Positions 6,573 to 54,336 of a stretch of 64,000 nt of DNA are shown here, in pieces. The notes beneath the pieces were generated by a model. It was not told where the DNA came from, made no database searches, and worked only from the letters and a program-made list of their open reading frames with translations. Both the position numbers and the translations under genes were made by a program. How positions within the stretch are numbered: the stretch's first letter is position 1; each line of letters starts with the position of its first letter. The stretch lies in the NCBI GenBank assembly GCA_964016885.1, contig OZ024740.1, positions 391,592,001-391,656,000 of the forward strand, read 5' to 3'. The DNA is from Eledone cirrhosa (lineage: Eukaryota).

Positions 6573-6712
6573 CTGTAAACATACAGATATAATTATACAT
6601 ATACTTGAAAAGGCTTATTGAAAACCCAAGCCAAAACCGGTCGGGATTTTACACATCTCTATAACCACTCTACATCTCCCCATATAGTGGTCTCCTCGGT
6701 CTCAGCACCACA

Positions 6713-12471: not shown

Positions 12472-12670
12472 AAGGAATTGTGGTAAGGAATCAGATGGAC
12501 CACAACGCACCAGAGTACTCAATACTTAGGGTAGTAGAGTGGGAAATAGGAAAAAGTATGACCCCCGACGGCAGAGCTCAAGCCATTTCGACGGCTATTT
12601 CTGGACACAATGTCTAGAAATAGCCGTCGAAACGGCTTGAGCTCTGCCGTCGGGGTCATACTTTTTCCTA
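12472..12670 (-). mobile_element. Family A hairpin element (hammerhead stem II/III fold-back) in (TA)n
   Basis: Arms ~12547-12607 and ~12611-12670; tail shared with copies at 17761, 29050, 35730, 40988, 54148. Confidence 0.8.
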
Positions 12671-12680
12671 TATATATATA

Positions 12681-13560: not shown

Positions 13561-13793
13561 TATATATGTGTGAAAAGATTCAGAACTCCGACGGCTGGGC
13601 TCCGGCTGTTTCGACTGCCAGATCCGAACAGCACCGAGTACTCTGGTGGGTTATGGTCCACCTGTTTTTTTACCACACCATCTCTTCTGATATATATGTA
13701 TATATATATGCAAAAGTTTTATTTAAAATTGTTGGGTTACAACAAGTAAATATTTTATAACTGATATAAAGCACTCAACAAGTTTTGGAGTAG

Positions 13794-15890
13794 ATATACG
13801 ATATTAAACAAATGGAAACTATATTTATAAAACCATATTTATTTCATTATACATATTTCGGGGATACCATATTAAAAATATGGCATGCCTTCTTCAGATA
13901 AAATACAATATATAAACAGTTTTGTAAATAATGTTGACGTACCATAAATATTGATCAACTTTTATGTAAGAAGTTGGTTTGGTAGTGAAATGTTTATAAA
14001 TATTTAGTGTTAAGCACAGTTAAAAAGAAAGACGGAGAAAAAGAAGAAATGTATGTAAAGAAAAACAGAGAGAAATAGAGAGAGATAGGGGAGAGAGAAA
14101 TAGTGAGGAGGTGAAAAAAGAGACGCAGCTGAGGCAACAGATGAATAATAATAATTCATCATACAAATTGAGAGATTTAGGAGGGAGGGAGTACTGTAAT
14201 TATTTAGTTATAGTGTTAAGGAGACGGAGAGAAATAAAAAATGAAGAGAAAACAGAGAGAGAGAGAAAGATAGAGGTGGGGGGAAAAAGAGGTAGACCAA
14301 ATAATAATAATTATTATATATGGGGAGGTGAGAGAAATAGGAGAGAAGTAAGAGAGAAAACAAGAGAGAAACTCGAGAGGCAAAGTTAAAATAACCGATA
14401 CTTAGACTTCATCAAATATAAAGAGGGAGGAGAAGAAAGAGCTATATCTAGAGAGAGGGATGATAGATTTACATCTTTACGTTATGTCCTATCAATTTGA
14501 ATTATCAATTCATATGAATTGGGTATTATAATGTAAATATCAATATTCATGAATGAGACATAGATATATAATGTGTGAAAAATAATGACCATATGTTTAG
14601 TTTAAAATTCTGAGGTCGATGTACCAAAAACTGAGATAAAACTTCAAAAAATACGGAAATATATAAGTATATATGTACTTTCCGGAAAAGGAAAGAAAGA
14701 GAAAAAGAGAAGGTCATCTCAAGTTCTAGTTGATACTATAGACATACCCATGATCTTACGTGATCAACTCTGTAATTTCTTGTTTCACATAAAAAATTGT
14801 TTCCCTTGTGTTATAAAAGATTTTACTATATATATATATACATAAAAAATATATATTAATACTCCTGCCCTCACATACATGATTATCGTTCATGTATAGA
14901 ATATTATGCATATCTGTAACATATCCAGAACTATACCCACACATACATATATATATATATATGTATGCACACATATATGTACATGGACAGATAAAATAAA
15001 CAGATAAAATAAAATATACTCTGTAATCATTCCATATTCATATTAATACATATGGCCTTTGTACAGAGACAACCAGATATTAATATATCAGCACAGAGAT
15101 ATCAAAACGTTAAAAATATTTTCATCACTCCCTAGAGTATCTCGGGCCGTAAAAAACACAGTATGCACCCCATATCAACCACAGAAATCTACCCTTCCAA
15201 TTTATCTGACAATATATTGCCAAGTTCATTAGAAGCAATCAGAATCAAAAAGCAAACAAAAACCAAAAATTATTCAACAAAACTTATTTAGCAGAAATCA
15301 TTTAAAAGATTTAGGAGACCCTGTTGTTCTACAGATGCTCTTATATTTAGTATAGAAGTTTATCTAGCGTAAAATTTATTCAATAGATTGGGAGCATCTA
15401 CATTTTAGGGTAGTTTAATTACATCATTAGTATATATTTATGAAGAAGGTTTAAAAGAAAAAGTTGAAGGAATCGAAAGATTTATCGTCAGGTTTCATAG
15501 ATTAATTAAATATCTTAACTAATTATACTACATTTTAAATTTATATTTATATTTAAACGTTGAGTTCAATCTATGTCTGCAGCAACTGAATAAATTGCTC
15601 CTTAAATTAAGGGAATTTTTAGATTTTAATATAAAGAATATCTCCTCCACACAGAGGTCACATGTCTCAGATGAGGAATTAAAAGGAATCCCTCTTGAGA
15701 CAATATTCCAAAACATCGAATACCCAACGTTATCATGTTTAAGTTGCCAGAGTAAGCCTGATATTGAAGTTGAAGATTTCTTGTTTGGATCTGTGAAAGA
15801 ATTCTTATGAAGAATTCTTATGAAGAAATCTTCAACTTCACTATCAGGCTTACTCTGGCAACTTAAACATGACAACGTTGGGTATTCGAT
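13794..15890 (-). mobile_element. 5'-truncated Naiad-type copy: GIY-YIG C-terminus (15528-15820), long 3' region, hammerhead 13843-13903, 5' fold-back 15715-15890
   Basis: ORF 15528..15875 HKNSF..CDLCVEE..LNLRSNLFSCCRH is paralogous to 3-854; minus strand CTGAAGA..GAAA-tatgta-TA. Confidence 0.85.
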
Positions 15891-15891
15891 C

Positions 15892-16110
15892 GTTCAATCG
15901 ACTGACAGGAAGGTGCTGATGACAGCTAATAAGCTAGAAACTAGTTCATCGTTCCTTTGTCTTGTCAGTGTTGAGCAAAAGGGCAACGATGGTTGCCGAA
16001 CTAACCGAACATTATAATAAATGTTCGGTAAACCCATACGTACATATATATATATATATGTGCATGTATGTATATACATACTACTGTACGTCTGTATACA
16101 TATATGTATG
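15892..16110 (+). mobile_element. Family B fragment with hammerhead at 15913-15949
   Basis: gtg-CTGATGA-cagctaataagcta-GAAA-CTAG-TT-cat; homologous to 19190-19460. Confidence 0.7.
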
Positions 16111-17619: not shown

Positions 17620-18014
<395 letters not shown>

Positions 18015-18281: not shown

Positions 18282-19773
18282 ACTAGAAATTGATTAACAT
18301 ATAAATAAACATGAATAATCACAGGAGATAATTTTTACAAGTGTGTAACCACACATAGCTAGGTAGGTAACTAAATAAAGTTGACCAGAACTTCAAAAAT
18401 AGATACCTTATAATATGATTAATGCAAAAAATGAAAGAAATTTCATTTCCCACTCTTAGTAAGGCTGTTACTTAAATATAAGTATGTACACGTACATACA
18501 TATATGTATACAGACGTACAGTAGTATGTATATATATATACATACATGCACACATATATATATGTACGTATGGATTCACCGAACATTTATTATAATGCTC
18601 GGTGTGTTTGTAAACAAACATCCCGTATTAAACCGTAGTGTCTAGCAACCATCGTTGCTCGTTTGTTCAACACTGACAAAGGAACGCTGTACTAGTTTCA
18701 AGCTTATTAGCTATCGTCAGTAACTTATACCTTCCTGCCAGATTGTTGAACGTATATACTTACCTTATGCATATTAACGGCTGAGTAGCCAAATTTGCAT
18801 ATCGAGTGGGTTAATCGGCCGGGTGCACCGAAAACGATAAACGGAAAAAATGAAAGAAATTTCATTTCCCACTCTTAGTACGGCTGTTACTTAAATATAA
18901 GTATGTACACGTACATACATATATGTATACAGACGTACAGTAGTATGTATATATACATACATGCACACATATATATATGTACGTATGGATTTACCGAATA
19001 TTTATTATAATGCTCGGTGTGTTTGTAAACAAACATCCCGTATTAAGCCGTAGTGTCTAGCAACCATCGTTGCTCGTTTGTTCAACACTGACAAAGGAAC
19101 GCTGTACTAGTTTCAAGCTTATTAGCTATCGTCAGCAATATGCAAATTAGGCTACTCAGCCGTTAATATGCATAAGGTAAGTATATATGTTCAACAATCT
19201 GGCAGGAAGGTATACGTTGCTGACGATAGCTAATAAGCTTGAAACTAGTACAGCGTTCCTTTGTCAGTGTTGAACAAACGAGCAACGATGGTTGCTAGAC
19301 ACTACGGTTTAATACGGGATGTTTGTTTACAAACACACCGAGCATTATAATAAATGTTCGGTGAATCCATACGTACATATATATATGTGTGCATGTATGT
19401 ATATATATATACATACTACTGTACGTCTGTATACCTATATGCTTGTACGTGTACATACTAATATGATTAATCTTCCCTGTATATATTCCATTAAAGAAAT
19501 ATATTTCACCAATTAATCGAATGGTAAACCACAGATGCCGAGACTTGGATTTTCAACAAGGAAGGCATCTGTGGTTTACCATTCGATTAATTGGTGAAAT
19601 ATATTTCTTTAATGGAATATATACAGGGAAGATTAATCATATTATAAGGTATCTATTTTTGAAGTTCTGGTCAACTTTATTTAGTTACCTACCTAGCTAT
19701 GTGTGGTTACACACTTGTAAAAAATATCTCCTGTGATTATTCATGTTTATTTATATGTTAATCAATTTCTAGT

Positions 19774-20961: not shown

Positions 20962-21075
20962 TATATATATATATATATATGTCTGCTAATATACAAATCA
21001 GGCCGATCAGTCACTGTGTATTTTTGAAAATAGCATATATTTTAACTAGTTCTGACAGTTTGGTAGGTGAACAGT

Positions 21076-21125
21076 GAGCTGTACTGATGAAGGGTGATAC
21101 CCCGAAACATTAGTGTCTGCAGTTC
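21076..21125 (+). ncRNA. Type-I hammerhead ribozyme motif
   Basis: gagctgta-CTGATGA-agggtgatacccc-GAAA-cattagtg-TC-tgcagttc; 8-bp helix I including G-U pairs. Confidence 0.75.
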
Positions 21126-21239
21126 TGTTCGCATGCCAACATAAGAGCAAGAATGAAGGGTTCATTCTACTGACATGGCTATACAATTGAGGCTTGTTTG
21201 CATAATTGCAAACGAATCGAATGTTAGTATTAATATTCA

Positions 21240-28340: not shown

Positions 28341-29049
<709 letters not shown>

Positions 29050-29208
29050 ACGAAGGAAATGTGGTAAGGAACCAGGTGGACCATAACGCACCAAAGTACT
29101 CAATACTTGGGGTAGTAGAGTGGGTAATAGGAACCAGGATAAATTTTCATTTAGTCCAGAATTAGCCGTCGAAACGGCTTGAGCTCAGCCGTCGGGGTCT
29201 TACTGATT

Positions 29209-29212
<4 letters not shown>
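29050..29212 (-). mobile_element. Family A element with one arm largely deleted
   Basis: Family tail plus aattagccgtcgaaacggcttgagctcagccgtcgggg. Confidence 0.75.
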
Positions 29213-29254
<42 letters not shown>

Positions 29255-30347: not shown

Positions 30348-30625
30348 AGGTCCTCAGATATGTCTTGATTCTACGAAGCAGAAAATCAGCTTCGTAGAAT
30401 CAAGACGTATCTGAGGACCTTGCGATTTTCAGAGTCAGATTCGATCATTACATTGATCGTGCCTCGAGCTGGTCGCCAGAGAAACAATTGTAATATGTCC
30501 AATAAATTCCATTCGTCGCAACACTGATTCTCTTTTTTTCTGTGATATCATACTCTGCTCTATGAGAGCATCGAGTGCTCATACGGCCTACTGCAGACGG
30601 ACGCTTTAAGCATCCAACACCAATT
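30348..30625 (+). mobile_element. Short element with 5' hairpin (30348-30420) and hammerhead at 30404-30499
   Basis: gacgtat-CTGAGGA-(~63 nt)-GAAA-CAATTG-TA-atatgtc; ends at (TA)n. Confidence 0.7.
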
Positions 30626-35729: not shown

Positions 35730-35870
35730 AAGAAAGAATAGTGGTAAGGAACCAAATGGACCATAACGCACTAGAGTCCTCAATACTTAGGGTAGTAGAG
35801 TGGGTAATAGGAAAAAGTATGACCCCGACGGCAGAGCTCAAGCCGTTTCGACGGCTATTTCTGGAGTCCA

Positions 35871-35873
<3 letters not shown>
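35730..35873 (-). mobile_element. Family A element ending just past the stem II apex
   Basis: Single arm ..gacggctatttctggagtccagaa then (TA)n. Confidence 0.75.
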
Positions 35874-38224: not shown

Positions 38225-39418
38225 GATAAATCAAAGTGAATTTAATCTAAATCAAAATTATGGGTTTCATGCCAGAAAGGCATGCGCCATATCACCCGTA
38301 AAATAAGCTCCAAGATTCTAATGAATAGGTCCGAGCATTTTATAGAACTAGAAATTGATTAACATATAAATAAACATATGAAACAATCACAGGGGATAAT
38401 TTTTCTAAGTGTAAATAAAGCTAACTAGAACTTCAAAAATAGATACCTTATAATATGATTAATCTTCCCTGTATATATTCCATTAAAGAAATATATTTCA
38501 CCAATTAATCGAATGGTAAACCACGGAGGCCGATACTTGGATTTTCAACAAGGAAGAAGTCCAATCATATTATAAGGTATCTATTTTTGAAGTTCTGGTC
38601 AACTTTATTTAGTTACCTACCTAGCTATGCGTGCTTGCACACTTGTAAAAATTATCCCCTGTGATTGTTTCATATGTTTATTTATATGTTAATCAATTTC
38701 TAGTTGTTATAAAATGCTCGGACCTATTCATTAGAATCTTGGAGCTTATTTTACGGGTGATTTGGCGCATGCCTTTCTGGTATAACACCCATAATTTTGA
38801 TTTAGATTAAATTCACTTTGATTTATCTTAATTTTGGATATAGATATATAAATACGGCTCCTTAATTGTAGAGCTAACTCTGTTGAAAGGACTTGACTGC
38901 TGTTTCTAGTTGTCGATAACCCTATTCACGCCACTGGGACGAAGCTGGTATGATGTGTGTATTTCTAGTAGATAAAGCACGTGTTACTGGCCAGTCGCTG
39001 ATTTGAACTTAATGCGTAAACAGAGATGGCTGGACTTCTTCGTTGTTGAAAATCCAAGTATCGGCCTGTATACATATATGCATGTACGTGTACATACTAA
39101 TATGATTAATCTTCCCTGTATATATTCCATTAAAGAAATATATTTCACCAATTAATCGAATGGTAAATCACAGATGCCGAGACTTGGATTTTCAACAAGG
39201 AAGGCATCCGTGGTTTACCATTCGATTAATTGGTGAAATATATTTCTTTAATGGATTATATACAAGAAATATTAATCATATTATAAGGTATCTATTTTTG
39301 AAGTTCTGGTCAACTTTATTTAGTTACCTACCTAGCTATGTGTGCTTACACACTTGTAAAAATTATCCCCTGTGATTGTTTCATATGTTTATTTATATGT
39401 TAATCAATTTCTAGTTGT

Positions 39419-40680: not shown

Positions 40681-40946
40681 ATATAAGAACAAAAGATGGT
40701 TAAAAGAGTTCCATGTATTTTATTATGCGCATTTCAAAAAATGATATGGTAATGATATGTTGATTTCAAAAAATCATATGGTAATGATATGTTGATTTAA
40801 AACTGAACTATCCACACGTGTTTTTTAACCTTCATATCATGTCTTCCTGTTTTATCTGATGAAAACACAAATATTATTGCATGATGATATTTGTTTTTGA
40901 AATGCGCATAATAAAATACATGGAACTCTTTTAACCATCTTTTGTT

Positions 40947-40987: not shown

Positions 40988-40991
<4 letters not shown>

Positions 40992-41184
40992 ATGTTCAAG
41001 ACCACGACGGCAGAGCTGAAGCCGTTTCGACGTCTATTTCTGAAATAGCTGTCGAAACGGCTTGAGCTTCGCCGTCGGGGATCTTGAACAATTTCCTGTT
41101 ACCCACTCTACTACCCTAAGTATTGAGTAATCTAGTGCGTTATGGTCCACCTGGTTCCTTACCACACTACCAAACTTCCTTCGC
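40988..41184 (+). mobile_element. Family A hairpin element
   Basis: Arms with tgttcaaga linker; apex ctatttc-t-gaaatag. Confidence 0.8.
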
Positions 41185-41632
41185 TATATATATATATATA
41201 TATATATAGAGAAAATTGAGGTTGGTAATGGCACATGGAATATATAAGAGACAGAATACTTTTTTGTGAAAAAACATAATTTTATAAGGTAAGGAAATAA
41301 TAAAGGGTATAAAAGATGACCGGTTTCGATGGGTCTGCAAAAGCCATCTTTTCAAATGTTGATTAATATTAAGAAAAATTAATAATACGAAGAGTTAAAA
41401 TTTGAGACTTGAAAATTCAAGTATAAAATTCATTGTGGGATTTCATAGCAGTTTTCATCTAGGTAGCAACAACAGGTTGACTGCTGTGTCCCTTTCTGGT
41501 AGTGAATGAGAAGTTATTTGGGGTGTGGGTTATTTTATAAAGGTCAGATTTAGCAATAGCCAGCTGCTGGTCAGTGAGGGGGTGGAAGCAATATACACAC
41601 ACATACCTTCATCCACACATACATACACATAC

Positions 41633-41673
<41 letters not shown>

Positions 41674-41734
41674 CACACATACATACACACACACATACAT
41701 ATACATACACACACACACACACATATATACACAT

Positions 41735-41783
<49 letters not shown>

Positions 41784-41814
41784 TATATATACATACACAT
41801 ACATCCAGATACAC

Positions 41815-41910
<96 letters not shown>

Positions 41911-42460
41911 CCCCACACATACATACACACACACATATATATATATACATACACACATACAAACATACACACACACACACACACACATATATATACACAC
42001 ATACACACACATATATATACACACACACACACACACACATGCATATATATATATATATACACATACGCATACATCCAGATACCCACATACATACACACAC
42101 ACACACACACACGCACACACAATACATACATCCACATGCACACACATACTCACACACACACACACACACATACATACACCCACACACAGAGAAATGGCCT
42201 TCAAATATATATATATATATATACATACAGACACATATATTTTTTCCATAATATAAGAAGTTGGGGCAGTGAAATTAAAATAATTCTGTGTGCGCATATA
42301 TATATAGATATACGTGTGTGCACGTGCAGGGTTTAACATGGATGTGTTGGTCACACAAAGGCATGGTCTGTCAATGAATAAACCTGATTCTACAGAATTG
42401 GTCTCTGGTCTTTAATAGTAGTGATTCCGTGCGTATGTGTGTTTATATTTTATGACAATT

Positions 42461-43522
42461 CTATTGGGGTGATAACCCGTTTAGTTTTGGTTTAAATTTG
42501 TTAAGGAATAGATTTTCTTTGTTTATTCTTTGTTGTTGTGTGAACGAATCTGAGCACTTGTAGAAGGGGAAGATTTTAAAGTTGGGTAGTGTCATTCCTG
42601 CGCAGTTCGCAATATGGCTGCTCAAGGGGATTTTTCTTGTGTTAGCGTCCCGGATTTGTTGGCGGTGGATGGTCATTCTTTTGCGTAATGAGGTGCCCGT
42701 CTGTCCTATGTAGTTGTGTTTGCACCCACCGCAAGTTATTGCGTAAATCAAGTTCTCCGAGTTGCAGGTGAAATTGTTTTTTACTGTAAATGTTTGGCCA
42801 TCTTTGAATGTAAATGTTTGTCCTTCAGTGAGGTAGAGGCACGTTCCACAGTTTGTTCTACCACATTTGGTAACTGTAGGGTTGAGGATTGGTTTGGGTA
42901 TATTTGGTCCAGTGAGAATGCGTTTAAGTGATTTGGGTTGTCTTTTACTTTTAAGGATCTTGTGTGTTTCAAGAATAGACTTCATTTTTACATCTTTAAG
43001 TAGGATGGGGAGGTTTTTGTGTAGGTGATCAAACATTTCGGTATTTCTGGGGTTGAAAGTGGATACATATGGCAGGGTGTTGAGTGTGGTTTTCTGTTTT
43101 GGATTGTTAAGTTGATGGGGATTTAGGTGTTTTGCCCTGTCTATTCCATTGTTGATTATTTCAAGTGGAAAGGCTCTTAAGATAAGGGTGTCTTTTAGTT
43201 CCTTTAGTCTTTGCTCCCGTTTAGGTGGATCTGATACTATGGTACATATACGTTTGGCCAAATTGTAAGGAATGTTAAGTTTTGTATGTTTTGGGTGACT
43301 TGATGTGAAAAAGAGGTATTGCTTGGAATCTGTGGGTTTATAGAATATATCTGTATCTAATTTCCCGTCTATTACAGAGATGAGAATATCCAAGAAGGCT
43401 AATTCCTTAGGATTGGATTCCATTGTGAATTGTATGTTATTATCTATGTTGTTTATCATGTTTTTAAACGTAGTAAGTGAGTTCATGTCTTCTTGCCATA
43501 GGATAAAGCAGTCGTCTAGATA
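42461..43522 (-). CDS. Penelope-like RT C-terminal part plus Cys linker and GIY-YIG endonuclease (5'-truncated, otherwise open)
   Basis: YLDDCFILW at 43522 downwards, FLDI, YKPTD, SSHP, KCGRTNCGTC, LIYAITCGGCKHNYIGQT, R..IH, KPKLN. Confidence 0.9.
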   Translation of the reverse strand, partial: YLDDCFILWQEDMNSLTTFKNMINNIDNNIQFTMESNPKELAFLDILISVIDGKLDTDIFYKPTDSKQYLFFTSSHPKHTKLNIPYNLAKRICTIVSDPPKREQRLKELKDTLILRAFPLEIINNGIDRAKHLNPHQLNNPKQKTTLNTLPYVSTFNPRNTEMFDHLHKNLPILLKDVKMKSILETHKILKSKRQPKSLKRILTGPNIPKPILNPTVTKCGRTNCGTCLYLTEGQTFTFKDGQTFTVKNNFTCNSENLIYAITCGGCKHNYIGQTGTSLRKRMTIHRQQIRDANTRKIPLSSHIANCAGMTLPNFKIFPFYKCSDSFTQQQRINKENLFLNKFKPKLNGLSPQ

Positions 43523-43571
43523 AAAAACAATTTAGCAGTCGTCTAGATAAAAAACAATAAAGCAGTCGTCT

Positions 43572-43896
43572 AGTAAAAAACAATTTCACCTGCAACTCGG
43601 AGAACTTGATTTACGCAATAACTTGCGGTGGGTGCAAACACAACTACATAGGACAGACGGGCACCTCATTACGCAAAAGAATGACCATCCACCGCCAACA
43701 AATCCGGGACGCTAACACAAGAAAAATCCCCTTGAGCAGCCATATTGCGAACTGCGCAGGAATGACACTACCCAACTTTAAAATCTTCCCCTTCTACAAG
43801 TGCTCAGATTCGTTCACACAACAACAAAGAATAAACAAAGAAAATCTATTCCTTAACAAATTTAAACCAAAACTAAACGGGTTATCACCCCAATAG
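43572..43896 (+). CDS. Inverted duplicate of the GIY-YIG domain
   Basis: Peptide identical to the C-terminus of 42461..43486. Confidence 0.85.
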
Positions 43897-44446
43897 AATT
43901 GTCATAAAATATAAACACACATACGCACGGAATCACTACTATTAAAGACCAGAGACCAATTCTGTAGAATCAGGTTTATTCATTGACAGACCATGCCTTT
44001 GTGTGACCAACACATCCATGTTAAACCCTGCACGTGCACACACGTATATCTATATATATATGCGCACACAGAATTATTTTAATTTCACTGCCCCAACTTC
44101 TTATATTATGGAAAAAATATATGTGTCTGTATGTATATATATATATATATATTTGAAGGCCATTTCTCTGTGTGTGGGTGTATGTATGTGTGTGTGTGTG
44201 TGTGTGAGTATGTGTGTGCATGTGGATGTATGTATTGTGTGTGCGTGTGTGTGTGTGTGTGTGTATGTATGTGGGTATCTGGATGTATGCGTATGTGTAT
44301 ATATATATATATATGCATGTGTGTGTGTGTGTGTGTGTATATATATGTGTGTGTATGTGTGTATATATATGTGTGTGTGTGTGTGTGTGTATGTTTGTAT
44401 GTGTGTATGTATATATATATATGTGTGTGTGTATGTATGTGTGGGG

Positions 44447-44540
<94 letters not shown>

Positions 44541-44571
44541 GTGTATCTGGATGTATGTGTATGTATATATA

Positions 44572-44620
<49 letters not shown>

Positions 44621-44681
44621 ATGTGTATATATGTGTGTGTGTGTGTGTGTGTATATGTATGTGTGTGTGTATGTATGTGTG

Positions 44682-44722
<41 letters not shown>

Positions 44723-44994
44723 GTATGTGTATGTATGTGTGGATGAAGGTATGTGTGTGTATATTGCTTCCACCCCCTCACTGACCAGCAGCTGGCTATT
44801 GCTAAATCTGACCTTTATAAAATAACCCACACCCCAAATAACTTCTCATTCACTACCAGAAAGGGACACAGCAGTCAACCTGTTGTTGCTACCTAGATGA
44901 AAACTGCTATGAAATCCCACAATGAATTTTATACTTGAATTTTCAAGTCTCAAATTTTAACTCTTCGTATTATTAATTTTTCTTAATATTAATC

Positions 44995-45042
44995 AACATT
45001 TGAAAAGATGGCTTTTGCAGACCCATCGAAACCGGTCATCTT
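44995..45042 (+). ncRNA. Minimal hammerhead motif, U3-A8 variant
   Basis: aacat-TTGAAAA-GATGG cttttgcagac CCATC-GAAA-CCGG-TC-atctt. Confidence 0.7.
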
Positions 45043-45178
45043 TTATACCCTTTATTATTTCCTTACCTTATAAAATTATGTTTTTTCACAAAAAAGTATT
45101 CTGTCTCTTATATATTCCATGTGCCATTACCAACCTCAATTTTCTCTATAACCTTCGTTTTGTGTAGAAAATTACACT

Positions 45179-45248
<70 letters not shown>

Positions 45249-48944: not shown

Positions 48945-49205
48945 GGGCTGGATGCCCGATCGCGCAGTTAAACCACTGGGAGTGAAGAACCCCTAGCCCT
49001 TGTCAGGGCATTCTTCTAGGAGAAGGCATCTCAGGAAACTGGGTTAACTCCGATATAAAACCTGCGGCTCAGTAGTTACCGATGATGTTGATCTTTTCTT
49101 CTTTTCGGGTTATAACTACTGTCGCTCAGAGAGTGGGATTGGCTCAGTGCACAGTCTTTCCTCACTTTAAAAATATTCGTCACGCACAGGCATTGCACGA
49201 GTGCA
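48945..49205 (+). mobile_element. RTE 5'-UTR-like module
   Basis: Homologous to 47790-47980; lies just upstream of the RTE ORF. Confidence 0.55.
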
Positions 49206-49292
49206 TTAATAATTATTAATAGTGTACTATTATTATTATTATTATTATTACTATTATTATTACTTTTTTTTTTTTTTTTTTTTCCCAATTCA

Positions 49293-52200
49293 ATGATGTT
49301 CCAGAACAATGTAAACGAGATAATTGGCAATTTAGGTTCTGGAACAAAAAAGATCATTGGCAATAAGGGCAGGGGCCCCAAGTTATCACAACCTGGGCCC
49401 GCCCGTCATCGTGCCATTGTAATAGAGCCAAACAGGGCATTTAGTCTTGGCTGCTGGAACGTACGGACGCTGCTTGACAGGGATTCTTTGGAGCGTCCTG
49501 AACGAAGGACCGCTCTTGTTGCAAAGGAGCTTCGACGTTACGATCTTGACATCGTGGCTTTATCTGAGACGAGGTTAGCTGGAGATGGTCATCTTACGGA
49601 ATTTTGTGGAGAATATACATTCTTCTGGAAAGGAAGAGATGAAGGAACCAGAAGAGAGGCTGGGGTAGGATTTTCTGTTAAGACTGTACTTGTGAATAAA
49701 TTAGAAGAATTCCCAGTAGGGATTAGTGAGCGTCTTATGTCCATGAGAGTTCCGCTGGACAAGGGAAGATATGCTACCCTGGTGAGTGTGTATGCTCCAA
49801 CTATGAATTCTGTCGATGAAGAAAAACTGTCCTTTTACCATGCCTTGAAAGGTGTTCTAAGAAATATCCCTCAAGCAGACAAAGTCATCGTGCTTGGTGA
49901 CTTTAATGCTAGAGTGGGTAGGGATTTTAAAACATGGAATGTAATCGGAAGGCATGGGGTGGGAAAGTGTAACAGCAATGGTATGCTCTTGCTGCAGATG
50001 TGTGAGGAGCTGGATCTGTGTGTTACCAACACCATGTTCCAACAAAAGAACAAATTCAAGACCACATGGATGCATCCTGCATCTAAGGAATGGCATCTTT
50101 TGGACTACGTCCTAGTCAGGATGCGTGACAGACAGGATGTGCAGTGTGTTCGTGTTCTTCGTGGAGCTGAGTGCTGGACGGACCACCACCTGGTACGCGC
50201 AAAAGTGAATCTAATCACCAAACGTAAAATCCGGGCTCCTGGTGTTACCCTGCCCAAAAGATTGAATGCTGCTCGTCTTAAGGATAAAAATGTGAAGAGG
50301 ACATTGGAAGAAGAGATGCATGCTGCAGATCTTGGTGAGGATTGGCCGACCCTTAAAAAGTCGGTTTATGATGTAGGCAGACGTGTTCTGGGATTGGTGC
50401 AGAGAAAACATCAGGACTGGTTTAATGAGAATGATGTACATATAGAAGACTTGTTGGCTGATAAGAGGCGTGCTCTGTCACGCTACTTGACGGCAAAACC
50501 ACAGGAGAGGAATACGTTGCATGAGGAGCTCAGGGATGTAAAATCACGTGTTAGGCGGAGTCTTTCTCAGATGAAGGATCAGTGGTGGAGTGAGAAGGCT
50601 GGTGAGATACAAACTGCGTCTGATTGCAATAACACAAAGCTGTTGTACAGTCTCTTGCGTGAGGTTTATGGACCGTCTTCTTCTCTGGTGACACCGATTC
50701 GCAGTAAGGATGGCAAAGAACTTCTTCGTGACTCACAGGGAATTCTACGAAGGTGGCGAGAGCACTTTGATTATCTTTTGAATCAGCCGTCTGTCGTCAG
50801 TGAAGATTTCCTCAATCTCATTCCGGAAAGTCCTGTGAAAGTAGCTCTCGCAGAACCTCCGACGCTTGTGAAGGTTGCAGTGGCTATTTCGAAGCTGAAC
50901 AGTGGAAGATCTCCAGGTATGGATGGCATACATGCTGAGCTCCTACAATATGGTGGTGAGAGACTCCTGCAACATCCTCACTCTTTGTTTGGAAGGATAT
51001 GGGCTAATGAATCCGTGCCTGAGGACTGGAGAGATGCAGTAATGGTGGTCTTGTACAAGGGAAAGGGTAACAGGAATGATTGTGGGAACTACAGAGGTAT
51101 ATCATTGCTTTCTGTCGTAGGGAAAGTTTTATGTAGAGTGCTTCTGGACCGTCTGCTGACACACATTGCAGATTGTGTCCTTCCTGAAAGTCAATCTGGT
51201 TTTCGTGCTGGACGCGGCACTACTGATATGATCTTCTCAGCTAGACAGCTCCAGGAGAAGTGCATTGAACAAGGCTTGGATCTGTATCAGGTTTTTGTCG
51301 ATCTGACAAAGGCGTTCGATACTGTCAACAGAGATGCATTATGGAAGGTTCTCCAGAAACTTGGTTGCCCTGATAAGTTCCTTGCTTTAGTTAGGTCTTT
51401 CCATGACGACATGAAGGCTTGGGTTAATGTCGGAGGTAACATGTCGGAGCCTATCTCAGTAAAAAATGGAGTGAAACAGAGGGATATTCCAGCACCGACC
51501 CTGTTTGCCATATAGTTTGCAATGGTTTTCTGTATTGCATTCAGGAATTGCGAGCATGGTGTTTACATCCGATATCGAACCTCAGGCAGCATATTTAACA
51601 TCAGGCGCTTTGCTGCAAAGACAAAAGTATTTACATCAGTCATAAGAGACCTCTTGTATGCAGATGATTTCGATCTTGTAGCGCACACAGAGAGTGATAT
51701 GCAGCACATTTTGAATGCATTTTCTGACGCTTGCACTGTCCTGGGTTTGACTGTCAGTCTCAAGAAAACCGTCGTCATGTACCAACCTGCCCCTAGTAAG
51801 CAGTACACTGAACCAAACATCTATGTGTATGGCAAACGACTTGGAGTGGTTGATTAGTTTGTCTACCTGGGAAGCACTGTCAATCGATACGGCAACCTTG
51901 ACAGTGAAATCTCACTTAGGATTAGGAAAGCAAGTGATGCTTTCGGAAAGCTAGAAAGGCGACTCTGGGGTCGGCGAGACATATGCAGGAGGACAAAGGT
52001 AAAGGTGTACAGGGCATGTGTACTCTCTTGTCTTCTTTATGCCTGCGAGACCTGGTTCACATATCGACGCCACCTTAAGCAATTGGAGCGTTTCCATCAG
52101 ATGTGTCTCAGACGGATCCATGGCGTTCACTGGAGGGACCACATCAGTGATGTCGAGATTTTGGAAAGCTCTATGTGTGACAGTATAGAAGCTCTTGTGC

Positions 52201-52838
52201 TTAAGCAACGACTCCGTTGGAGTGGTCACCTTGCCAGGATGAAGGATTCTAGAATACCAAAACAACTCTTCTATGGAGAGTTGGTTAAAGGAAAACGACC
52301 GCCACATAAACCAAAAAAGAGGTGTAAGGATTCCTTGAAAGCCTCTCTGAAAGACGCTAACATCTCTGCTGATACATGGGAAAATATTGCTGCTGATCGT
52401 AATAAATGGAGAAAGACTGTATATGAGGGAAAAGTTGCCTTTGAGGCATCTCGAATCGCACACGAGAAAGTAAAGCGGGACGTGAGGAAGGGCATTGCTG
52501 TTGCATTTCCAGACGGCGAGGGTCATCCTATGGTGCTGACATGCAGCGTATGTGCGAGACTCTGCCTAAGCAAAGCTGGACTCGAAAGTCATCTTCGCAG
52601 TCATAAAGTAAGACCAGTGGTTGACTACCAGGCTGCTGTTGGAGATGCTACTCATCATGCTTGCCAAACATGTGGTAGAGAATGTAAATCAGCAGGAGGG
52701 CTCAAGCGACATGCAAAAGTACACGAACTCCAACCACAGCCGACTATTCCCAGTGAATGTTTTGGTTGCCGACTCTGTGCAAGACATTTTAGATCATTGG
52801 CTGGGCTAAAAAGCCACATTCGATCGCAGCACTGTTAG
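49293..52838 (+). pseudogene. Near-intact RTE-clade LINE: APE endonuclease, RT and three C2H2 zinc fingers; two in-frame TAG stops
   Basis: WNVRTL, LSETR, YAPT, LGDFNARVG, TDH; YRGISLL, FVDLTKAFD, YADD, FVYLGS; three CxxC..HxxxH-type motifs; ORFs 49293, 51522 and 52005 share one frame with stops at 51513-51515 and 51855-51857. Confidence 0.93.
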
Positions 52839-52985: not shown

Positions 52986-53971
52986 CCTTGAATCTCAGTC
53001 ATTGATGTTGGTTAACTGGAAAGTCCGTTGGATTGAATATCAAGCCACTACCTGCAGCCTCAGATATTCAGGACGTATCGGAGGGTTCTTGCTGTTCCAA
53101 GCAAGCATGCCTTTTGAAGCGTTCCAAAAAGCGTGAAGGGGCCGATTTTCTTTAACCATCCCTGGAAACTTTTGGAGATAGTCCCCAGTGCGCCTATGAC
53201 AATCGGGATCACTTTGACTTCATGGCAGTTCCAAATCCTTTTCACCTCCCACTTTAGGTCCTGGTATCGGTTAATTTTCTCCCTCTCCTTCTCTTGCACT
53301 CTCGTGTCGAACGGGCAGGCCACATCCACAATCAGACACGATCTTTTTTCTTTGTCCACAACCACCAGGTCAGGTCTATTGTGTTCCAGTTTTTTGTCCG
53401 TCTGTATCCTAAAATCCCACAGCACCTTCACCTGATTGTTCTCCATCACCGCCTCTGGCCTATGCTCATACCATTTCTCAGAATGTGGTAAATTGTTTAC
53501 TTTGCACAGGTGCCAGTGGATCACCCTGCCCATCACATCGTGTCTCCAGCCCTTATAGTGGGTCTGGGCTAGGTGTTTACACTCGGACACAATGTGAGCC
53601 ACAGTCTCTTCTCTCTCTCCACAGATCCTGCACAGTGGGCTAGCCTCCTCCTTGTAGATATGGTGCTTCAACCACTTCGTTTTGAGGGCCTGCTCCTGCG
53701 CAGCCATTAGCATTCCTTCTGTAGCCTTTTTGAGGTCTCCTCTTCTCAACCAGTTCCATGTCTGTGGATCTCTAAATTCAGTTTTCTCAAAGAAGGTACT
53801 ATGAAGGGATTTTCCCTTAAGGCTGCTCTTCCTCCTTGATGTTATTTCCTCCTTGGACATCCCCTGGCCTACTGTCCCCTCCTTCAGTACAGTTCTGAGC
53901 ATTGGCTCCTTACTATAGGTCACGTATTTGTATAGGTTGTTTTTCTCCATCTGAACACAGTCCTCTATGCT
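52986..53971 (-). mobile_element. 5'-truncated R4/Dong-type non-LTR element (CCHC plus restriction-like endonuclease) in (TAA)n
   Basis: CRIC..ETVAHIVSEC, RHD, LWDFRIQTD..HNRPDLV, DVACP, EK..Y.DL, PIVIGALG; TTA arrays on both flanks. Confidence 0.9.
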
Positions 53972-54147: not shown

Positions 54148-54151
<4 letters not shown>

Positions 54152-54335
54152 AACCAGTAAGACCCCGACAGCTGAGCTCAAGCCGTTTCGACGGCTAATT
54201 CTGAGAATTAGCCGTCGAAACGGCTTGAGCTCAGCTGTCGGGGTCTTACTGGTTCCTATTACCCACTCTACTACCTCAAGTATTGAGTACTTTGGTGCGT
54301 TATGGTCCACCTGGTTCCTTACCACATTTCCTTCG

Positions 54336-54336
<1 letters not shown>
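54148..54336 (+). mobile_element. Family A hairpin element with perfect 55-bp arms (apex 54203)
   Basis: taggaaccagtaagacccc..ggctaattct-g-agaattagcc..ggggtcttactggttccta. Confidence 0.85.

Follow-up and report, generated by a model that had tools for sequence, protein, structure and literature searches.

We found that the hairpin at 54148 belongs to a family of short repeats (family A) with seven copies in the window, the 64,000-nt stretch of Eledone cirrhosa DNA analysed here, and that these copies may be understood as the joined products of two cDNAs. The reading that we prefer, with a probability of about one half, is twin priming at two start sites, followed by a stop in a presumed hammerhead stem II and by end-joining of the two cDNAs with trimming or short fold-backs. 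The observations that bear on it are the architecture of the copies, the two fixed 3' ends, the asymmetric copies, the differences between apices, and the pairing of arms within copies. As far as sequence can tell, the asymmetric copies favour two independent cDNAs over one.

BLAST and profile searches recovered copies at 12472(-), 13570(+), 17761(+), 29046(-), 35730(-), 40988(+) and 54148(+), every one flanked on both sides by (TA)n (Table 1). The first-pass annotation had counted six; the one overlooked was the diverged copy at 13570-13690, which was detected by nhmmer (E 6.8e-9 and 1.7e-4). Its four full hairpins (12472, 17761, 40988 and 54148) were all borne out, and 35730, described as halting just past the apex, was measured to continue 7-9 nt beyond it. 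An inverted piece is joined head to head at the 5' end in 7/7 copies (7-9 nt in 35730), and in 54148 the inverted repeat between 54150 and 54256 is perfect, its halves meeting at a single nucleotide, 54203. The copies are stumps of about 120-220 nt, all without an ORF; an open frame does run through the direct arm, and its residues are not conserved from copy to copy. The evidence base is these seven copies, the only ones readable in full. A MITE was considered and rejected, as one arm is internal with 80-89 nt beyond it and 3/7 copies are not symmetric. Between 12680 and 13560 lies an older inverted repeat (79%) around a 128-codon frame; the (TA)n on either side of it holds a family A copy, and in both copies the inverted arm faces inward.

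Table 1. Family A copies, the parts of copy 54148, and the neighbouring Penelope-like element (PLE) fragment
Feature	Position	Strand	Remarks
Copy 54148, inverted tail-less arm	54150..54202	-	outer end adjoins (TA)n at the fixed site
Copy 54148, apex	54203..54203		1-nt centre, 13-14 nt upstream of GAAA
Copy 54148, direct arm	54204..54256	+	
Direct arm, presumed stem II 3' strand	54204-54216	+	
Direct arm, GAAA	54217-54220	+	
Direct arm, stem III and palindromic loop	54220-54238	+	
Direct arm, predicted cut site	C54239	+	
Direct arm, GGGGT	54240-54244	+	stem I 3' strand
Direct arm, subfamily linker	54245-54256	+	
Copy 54148, one-sided 3' tail	54257..54336	+	80 nt, terminates in (TA)n
Full hairpin	12472..12671	-	81-nt tail; arms differ at 2 sites over 50-nt core
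Full hairpin	17761..17963	+	82-nt tail; 8 arm differences
Full hairpin	40988..41184	+	89-nt tail; 8 arm differences
Diverged seventh copy	13570..13690	+	inverted arm up to 14 nt above GAAA; direct arm tail only, from 54285 equivalent; before it a 13-nt fold-back on an 8-bp palindrome
Asymmetric copy	29046..29213	-	inverted arm 29138-29213, furthest upstream reach of all copies, terminating in 9-bp stem and 4-nt loop; direct arm from 54249 equivalent
Copy with short inverted piece	35730..35873	-	direct arm and tail; inverted piece at 5' end only 7-9 nt
PLE fragment, not family A	41209..45182	-	RT/GIY-YIG frame 42461-43531 (-), PF01541 E 3.9e-6

The two arms of a copy do not end alike. In each of the four full hairpins one arm is flush with (TA)n while the other is longer by 80, 81, 82 or 89 nt, and the outer end of the inverted arm is one fixed site. 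We looked for the same ends in public sequencing runs, 14 of the 24 listed (from 10 studies) holding part of the 54148 stretch, and compared contigs from four of the runs (39, 1, 13,179 and 3 records). Among the loose-end rows listed for run X3 (10 rows, with 133 more unlisted), at least 74 contigs pass into (TA)n after 54259 and at least 27 do so at the corresponding end of a variant linker; run X1 gave 3 contigs with (TA)n after the 54259-type end. The other end was seen in at least 91 X3 contigs, which leave the 54148 sequence at 54326 and continue as a run resembling the tail end and then as (TA)n. Family A is very abundant, with 13,179 contigs in one run. Since symmetric hairpins break unitigs, their share is not readable from contig data, and the listed runs holding the 54148 stretch included no RNA data set. 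For the 54148 subfamily stretch, 0.6-1.0 of its words were present in runs under seven organism codes, three of them at 1.00.

The plus strand of 54148 reads C, GAAA, a stem III of 6 positions that encloses a palindromic GAGCTC loop, a GUC triplet, C54239 and GGGGT. In agreement with the first-pass annotation, none of the copies contains CUGANGA: 0/44 CTGANGA matches in the window fall inside family A, and 0/7 copies have the core and the stem I 5' strand, with GAAA, stem III and the NUH triplet present. Since the 5' half is absent in 7/7 copies, the copies as they stand cannot, on this reading, be active ribozymes. The half-hammerhead is modestly above chance, as 71/5000 shuffles match it at >=5 bp (at least 5 bp), and the 6-bp version was not met in copy 35730. 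No hammerhead appeared among the Rfam matches listed (150 of 193); Rfam microRNA models over the hairpins all scored below gathering scores and were rejected.

The stem II pairing named by the annotation is forced by the inverted repeat and so is not independent evidence. As the whole element is an inverted repeat the pairing proves nothing alone, and it is circular because no unfolded parent was found. On folding, the presumed stem II strand paired with the stem III 5' strand instead, and the direct arm folded no better than shuffles. Only 29046 has an independent 9-bp stem with a 4-nt loop, which is either natural or a fold-back; it may be the tip of a natural 22-bp stem II, and long stems do occur in this genome, stem II of the 40856 hammerhead being about 15 bp long. 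A short direct repeat common to the presumed stem II and stem III strands was dismissed as not above chance (394/3000 shuffles).

The motif might be no hammerhead remnant at all. The apex zone might then simply mark where a short template RNA has its 5' end, or where synthesis stalls for reasons that have nothing to do with a ribozyme stem. The missing CUGANGA, the listed Rfam matches, the shuffle count and the folding results all suit this explanation. We nevertheless regard it as very unlikely, since the C before GAAA, the A-U closing pair, the GUC triplet and the palindromic loop are traits of PLE hammerheads in the available part of PMC4209133, and the motif lies about 100 nt from the 3' end, in agreement with the Hydra-clade table in the available part of the PMC8557442 supplement. 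Complete type I hammerheads are also present in neighbouring repeats (15916, 19220, 21084 and 40856), against 0 in each of 10 shuffles. The hammerhead at 19220 has inverted partners at 19135 and 18720, and 21074-21128 folds well (z -3.2).

We compared the 8 arms of the 4 full hairpins over a 50-nt core. Pairing each arm with its partner in the same copy was the unique best of 105 matchings (18 differences), which bears out the earlier expectation that arms pair, and linkers agree, within copies. The arms differ at 0, 8, 8 and 2 sites (54148, 17761, 40988 and 12472), a mean of 4.5, as against means of 9.3 for left-left and 11.5 for right-right comparisons. The pairing is not without exceptions, as L17761 differs at 6 sites from L12472 and R35730 but at 8 from its own partner, and in the arm tree 54148/29046 is the sole well-supported clade, the 40988 and 17761 arms not being resolved. 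The arms had also been called copy-specific; they do agree within a copy, but the linkers are subfamily traits: L12472 and R35730 are identical, and 2 changes separate L29046 from either arm of 54148. Gene conversion between arms as the source of the common linkers was rejected, as arm-private changes persist. By analogy, the arms appear to resemble the paired LTRs of a retroelement, which match when inserted and diverge with time.

The segments between the two GAAA elements of the four full hairpins measure 39, 43, 25 and 27 nt, in keeping with the earlier remark that the apex loops differ, and these lengths place the turn 12-21 nt above GAAA. The near-symmetric apices have centres of 1-5 nt, and inner ends as a whole cluster 11-33 nt upstream of GAAA. 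Apices differ within both same-subfamily pairs, 54148/29046 and 12472/35730. As the arms pair within copies and the apices differ inside subfamilies, the arm was probably rebuilt at insertion. The within-copy pairing thus agrees with the first-pass view that the arm is regenerated per insertion or subfamily and does not descend from one ancient hairpin.

The alternative is an inherited non-autonomous hairpin, in which a subfamily master consisting of hairpin and tail would be retrotransposed whole, the apex differences arising by jumps of the reverse transcriptase across the RNA stem or by later deletions at the palindrome centre. This would account for linkers that are subfamily traits and not private, and for the C-to-T variant of both 54148 arms, which recurs in other runs (X2 record 9 and X6 record 20, 0 differences). 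Each of the five apices could derive from the longer 29046 stem-loop by loss of its centre, and 35730 reads as a plain truncation just past the apex. We still judge inheritance unlikely. No variant column was left-only or right-only among 10 arms; 54148 has 0 arm differences and yet lacks about 20 nt that 29046 has; and the asymmetric copies would demand repeated loss of the same arm. A neighbouring family (19459-19644, 39098-39283 and 38451-38556) has a long hairpin with the same loop in separate copies, and since 19459-19644 and 39098-39283 keep that loop, their hairpin is, to judge from this conservation, inherited; family A does not keep one loop.

Two copies decided our view of how the arms arose. 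Stem III, GAAA and the presumed stem II strand are all present on the tail-less arm of 29046 and of 13570, while the tail-bearing arm starts only at the 54249 and 54285 equivalents, so that the earlier statement that family A always turns back at stem II does not hold for them. A single snap-back cDNA must contain all of both arms, and here neither arm does; the inverted arm of 29046 and 13570 would thus not be a snap-back copy. The opposite-strand joints listed from the public contigs were only 54204>54270 and 54209>54253 (2 contigs each, all X3), and both share the form of 29046 and 13570. The four short tail arms begin -8 to +28 nt from the outer end of the inverted arm (54257). These asymmetric copies could instead be hairpins with later partial loss of one arm.

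Short fold-backs were also seen at the joints. Copy 13570 has an 8-bp palindrome, and the 13 nt leading up to its centre repeat the sequence beyond it in inverted form; scored against copy 17761, 27/20000 random fillers did equally well (a post hoc comparison), and the score against its own diverged arm was lower. The 9-bp stem and 4-nt loop of 29046 was equalled by 35/20000 random fillers (also post hoc). Short self-priming or fold-backs at cDNA ends appear real in 13570, 29046 and 35730. When broken DNA is repaired by end-joining, short inserts of the fold-back type are known to arise (available parts of PMC11724301 and PMC5728401).

The first-pass annotation had proposed that nascent cDNA snaps back on stem II and self-primes. 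The short fold-backs in 13570, 29046 and 35730 and the clustering of inner ends near GAAA speak for one part of this, but the long inverted arm is not well explained as a self-primed copy of the tail-bearing cDNA on stem II, 2/7 tail arms being incomplete. In its full form the model has one cDNA from the tail end fold back in or near stem II and self-prime the whole inverted arm, after which the endonuclease would cut or resolve the arm at the fixed site and the hairpin tip would be trimmed, which is near the proposal of Arkhipova et al. 2013. The near-symmetric apices of the four full hairpins, with their 1-5-nt centres, are what it predicts, and the fold-backs in the three other copies suit it. 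From the available literature, palindromes at inverted PLE junctions have been read as self-priming on an antisense template (PMC3846280), and the tail has been ascribed to endonuclease-mediated resolution (PMC8557442).

We consider this model improbable too. The asymmetric 29046 and 13570, the two X3 joints and the 41209-45182 element would all require later deletions. A seamless snap-back on stem II predicts one loop per subfamily and is not supported, since the apices differ in both pairs. With the 29046 arm as reference, the parent-consistent reach of the tail-less arm is longer by 1 nt in 54148, by 2 nt in 40988 and by up to 5 nt in 17761 (possibly 0 with a mutation), 12472 being ambiguous. 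In other families the inner ends lie at the CUGA core (28583), 27 nt upstream of the core (30384), 3 nt upstream of it on one arm (19135), at the stem II base on one arm (40730) and, in the 41209-45182 element, deep in the ORF (43574); being near but outside stem II, they indicate that inversion does not need stem II. The inverted repeats at 28377-28789 and 30348-30420 belong to other families, with the apex at and 27 nt upstream of a CTGANGA core.

No CUGANGA parent, which snap-back on stem II would call for, was found. The annotation had suggested searching for unfolded parents with CTGANGA, and none came from the descriptor scan of the window (no complete hammerhead in family A), the nhmmer profile (7 copies only, none longer) or the collection scans. 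The next nhmmer match, 6638-6676 (E 0.19), was rejected since no related core was seen on reading. Pattern scans of viral contigs, metagenomes and prokaryote genomes each gave 0 matches. When the metagenome pattern was relaxed, 121 stretches came up, and the 120 loci examined match over the pattern alone and were set aside as chance. Three family A motifs were absent from the available part of the PMC8557442 supplement (Naiad, Chlamys and Hydra consensus), in which a motif split across line ends would escape. X6 records 18 and 19 extend 139 and 134 nt past the first base with no inverted joint listed, where a parent and plain flank are indistinguishable.

Under twin priming, a family A copy would be the 5'-truncated remnant of a PLE that targets (TA)n, cut down to a stump of its 3' end, the pLTR, which bears the hammerhead. 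The PLE enzyme would nick both strands of a (TA)n tract and prime two cDNAs. One would begin at the tail end; the other would begin internally, about 80 nt further upstream, and would become the inverted tail-less arm, halting within the presumed stem II at 14-33 nt above GAAA. The tail cDNA would stop near the other's start, as in 29046 and 13570, or run to the same zone and give a symmetric hairpin. Joining of the two cDNA ends with trimming, filler or 7-13-nt fold-backs would then leave each insertion its own apex and a linker common to the subfamily. Extension of both strands by a PLE enzyme, with starts at two sites that mark the limits of the tail, is taken from the literature; the order of priming, the use of one shared RNA template, the identity of stem II and the reason why synthesis would stop there are, like twin priming in family A itself, what we infer. 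Against it stands the symmetry of the inner ends, which fold-back predicts and for which twin priming needs an extra assumption: in the five apex-bearing copies the inner ends lie 0-2 nt apart under one hand reading (4/120 permutations), though a second hand reading did not bear this out (32/120). The 7-9-nt inverted piece of 35730, moreover, does not start at the fixed site.

A more elaborate version is offered tentatively, and we would rather doubt than defend it. One RNA would be copied into both cDNAs by a PLE dimer, with the tail-less inverted arm as the primary product and a long stem II stopping synthesis; the symmetric hairpin would form in one of two ways, either by fold-back of the inverted cDNA, whose copy would then reach the tail cDNA by way of a short natural overlap between them, or by displacement of the first RT by a second. 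This tail-less-arm-first polarity is the reverse of that in the first-pass annotation. If true, three features of PLE insertions (tail, inversion and palindrome at the junction) would follow from one twin-priming scheme, and the hammerhead would gain a cleavage-independent role.

The same layout is met in a larger element. The 41209-45182 PLE fragment has 1.57-kb inverted arms that are 99.4% identical; the long arm is flush on (TA)n without extension, and the shorter inverted arm, 43574-45146, carries a 36-nt extension, for which no second copy was found in the window and which we take to be a tail. Its junction has an 11-nt microhomology and a 25-nt tandem repeat. On this evidence the element seems to repeat the logic of the asymmetric copies. 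Tandem repeats of 18, 23 and 25 nt occur at the junctions of three inverted structures (15785-15835, 40728-40810 and 43495-43600), suggesting repeated re-priming during joining.

The window as a whole is microsatellite-rich, mostly 26-46% GC per 2 kb, with 115 (TA)n tracts of at least 5 units, and it is full of Penelope-like relics, with more than 10 other local inverted repeats. At 15528-15950 a frame without a Pfam hit ends in a CxLCxxE motif followed by the hammerhead at 15916, and presumably resembles Hydra-clade PLE ends. The minus-strand fragment at 53063-53950 is the 3' part of a non-LTR retrotransposon. A CCHC finger and a motif of a restriction-like endonuclease were recognised by eye, and Pfam gave zf-RVT alone, below cut-off; the fragment is truncated at a long (TAA)n tract, and we take it to be Dong/R4-like. 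A plus-strand non-LTR element at 49116-52838, with APE endonuclease and RT domains (PF03372, PF00078) split into two frames, is assumed to be RTE-like. The common SINE of the window resembles, we presume, octopus SINEs.

Twin priming is said to go back to the work of Ostertag and Kazazian in 2001 on LINE-1. In L1 twin priming the two pieces abut. Family A is alike in that two cDNAs from opposite target ends would give a 5' inversion, and the pieces of its asymmetric copies abut with a small overlap or gap. It is unlike LINE-1 in that the second start is a fixed site, and in that the two cDNAs often overlap fully, giving a palindrome. The twin-priming model for LINE-1 is described in the available part of bioRxiv 10.1101/2024.12.14.628481. 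Our full-text literature search, whose reach left out most subscription papers, found no paper on twin priming of inverted Penelope elements.

Family A is a new family, and its architecture is one already known for PLEs. Insertions of EN+ PLEs have an inverted 5'-truncated copy, often with a tail on one end only (available parts of Craig et al. 2021, PMC8557442; Arkhipova et al. 2013, PMC3846280). Like Penelope/Poseidon, Neptune, Hydra and Naiad, family A shows strong 5' truncation, a head-to-head inverted copy and a one-end extension, together with the (TA)n or AT-rich targets (7/7 family A copies) and the palindrome at the inverted junction described in the accessible text. Its tail is longer, 80-89 nt against the 30-40 given in the published parts available, and it is seen as ORF-less stumps only, with the inner ends within a 20-nt zone above GAAA. 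With PLE hammerheads it shares C11.1 before GAAA, the A-U closing pair, the palindromic loop 3 and the distance of about 100 nt to the 3' end. Unlike them it is without the stem I 5' strand and CUGANGA in 7/7 copies, and its helix III is longer (5-6 bp) than in most metazoan hammerheads. Animal non-LTR retrozymes (available part of bioRxiv 10.64898/2026.07.22.740005) are likewise small, non-coding, hammerhead-related and PLE-derived. They are, however, tandem with complete hammerheads, whereas family A is solitary and inverted with the core absent; as 7/7 copies are solitary and without CUGANGA, a retrozyme identity was rejected.

Self-priming at palindromic inverted PLE junctions was proposed in 2013 (available part of PMC3846280), and the idea in the first-pass annotation is close to it. 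The route by which PLEs build inverted structures is described as undefined in the available part of PMC8557442. The closest biochemical parallel comes from PAc, a Poseidon element of Anolis carolinensis (Frangieh et al. 2024), whose protein, in the available part of PMC11167929, cleaves and extends both strands in vitro. Reverse transcription by PAc begins at two sites, which set the limits of the tail; the protein is predicted to form a dimer, and the RNA that it copies is uncleaved. Family A is alike in its two fixed 3' ends bounding the tail, its AT-rich target and a template uncut at the hammerhead site; it differs in that the PAc start sites are 30-40 nt apart, and inverted copies are not explained in the part of that paper available to us. 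The asymmetric copies are a testable clue to the formation of inverted PLE structures, and family A is an abundant, compact test case for this open step of PLE transposition. Since it is both tiny and very abundant, a long-read census could separate twin priming, snap-back and inheritance. The asymmetric copies argue for cDNAs made independently of each other, two per insertion, in keeping with the biochemistry of PAc, which has two starts and acts on both strands.
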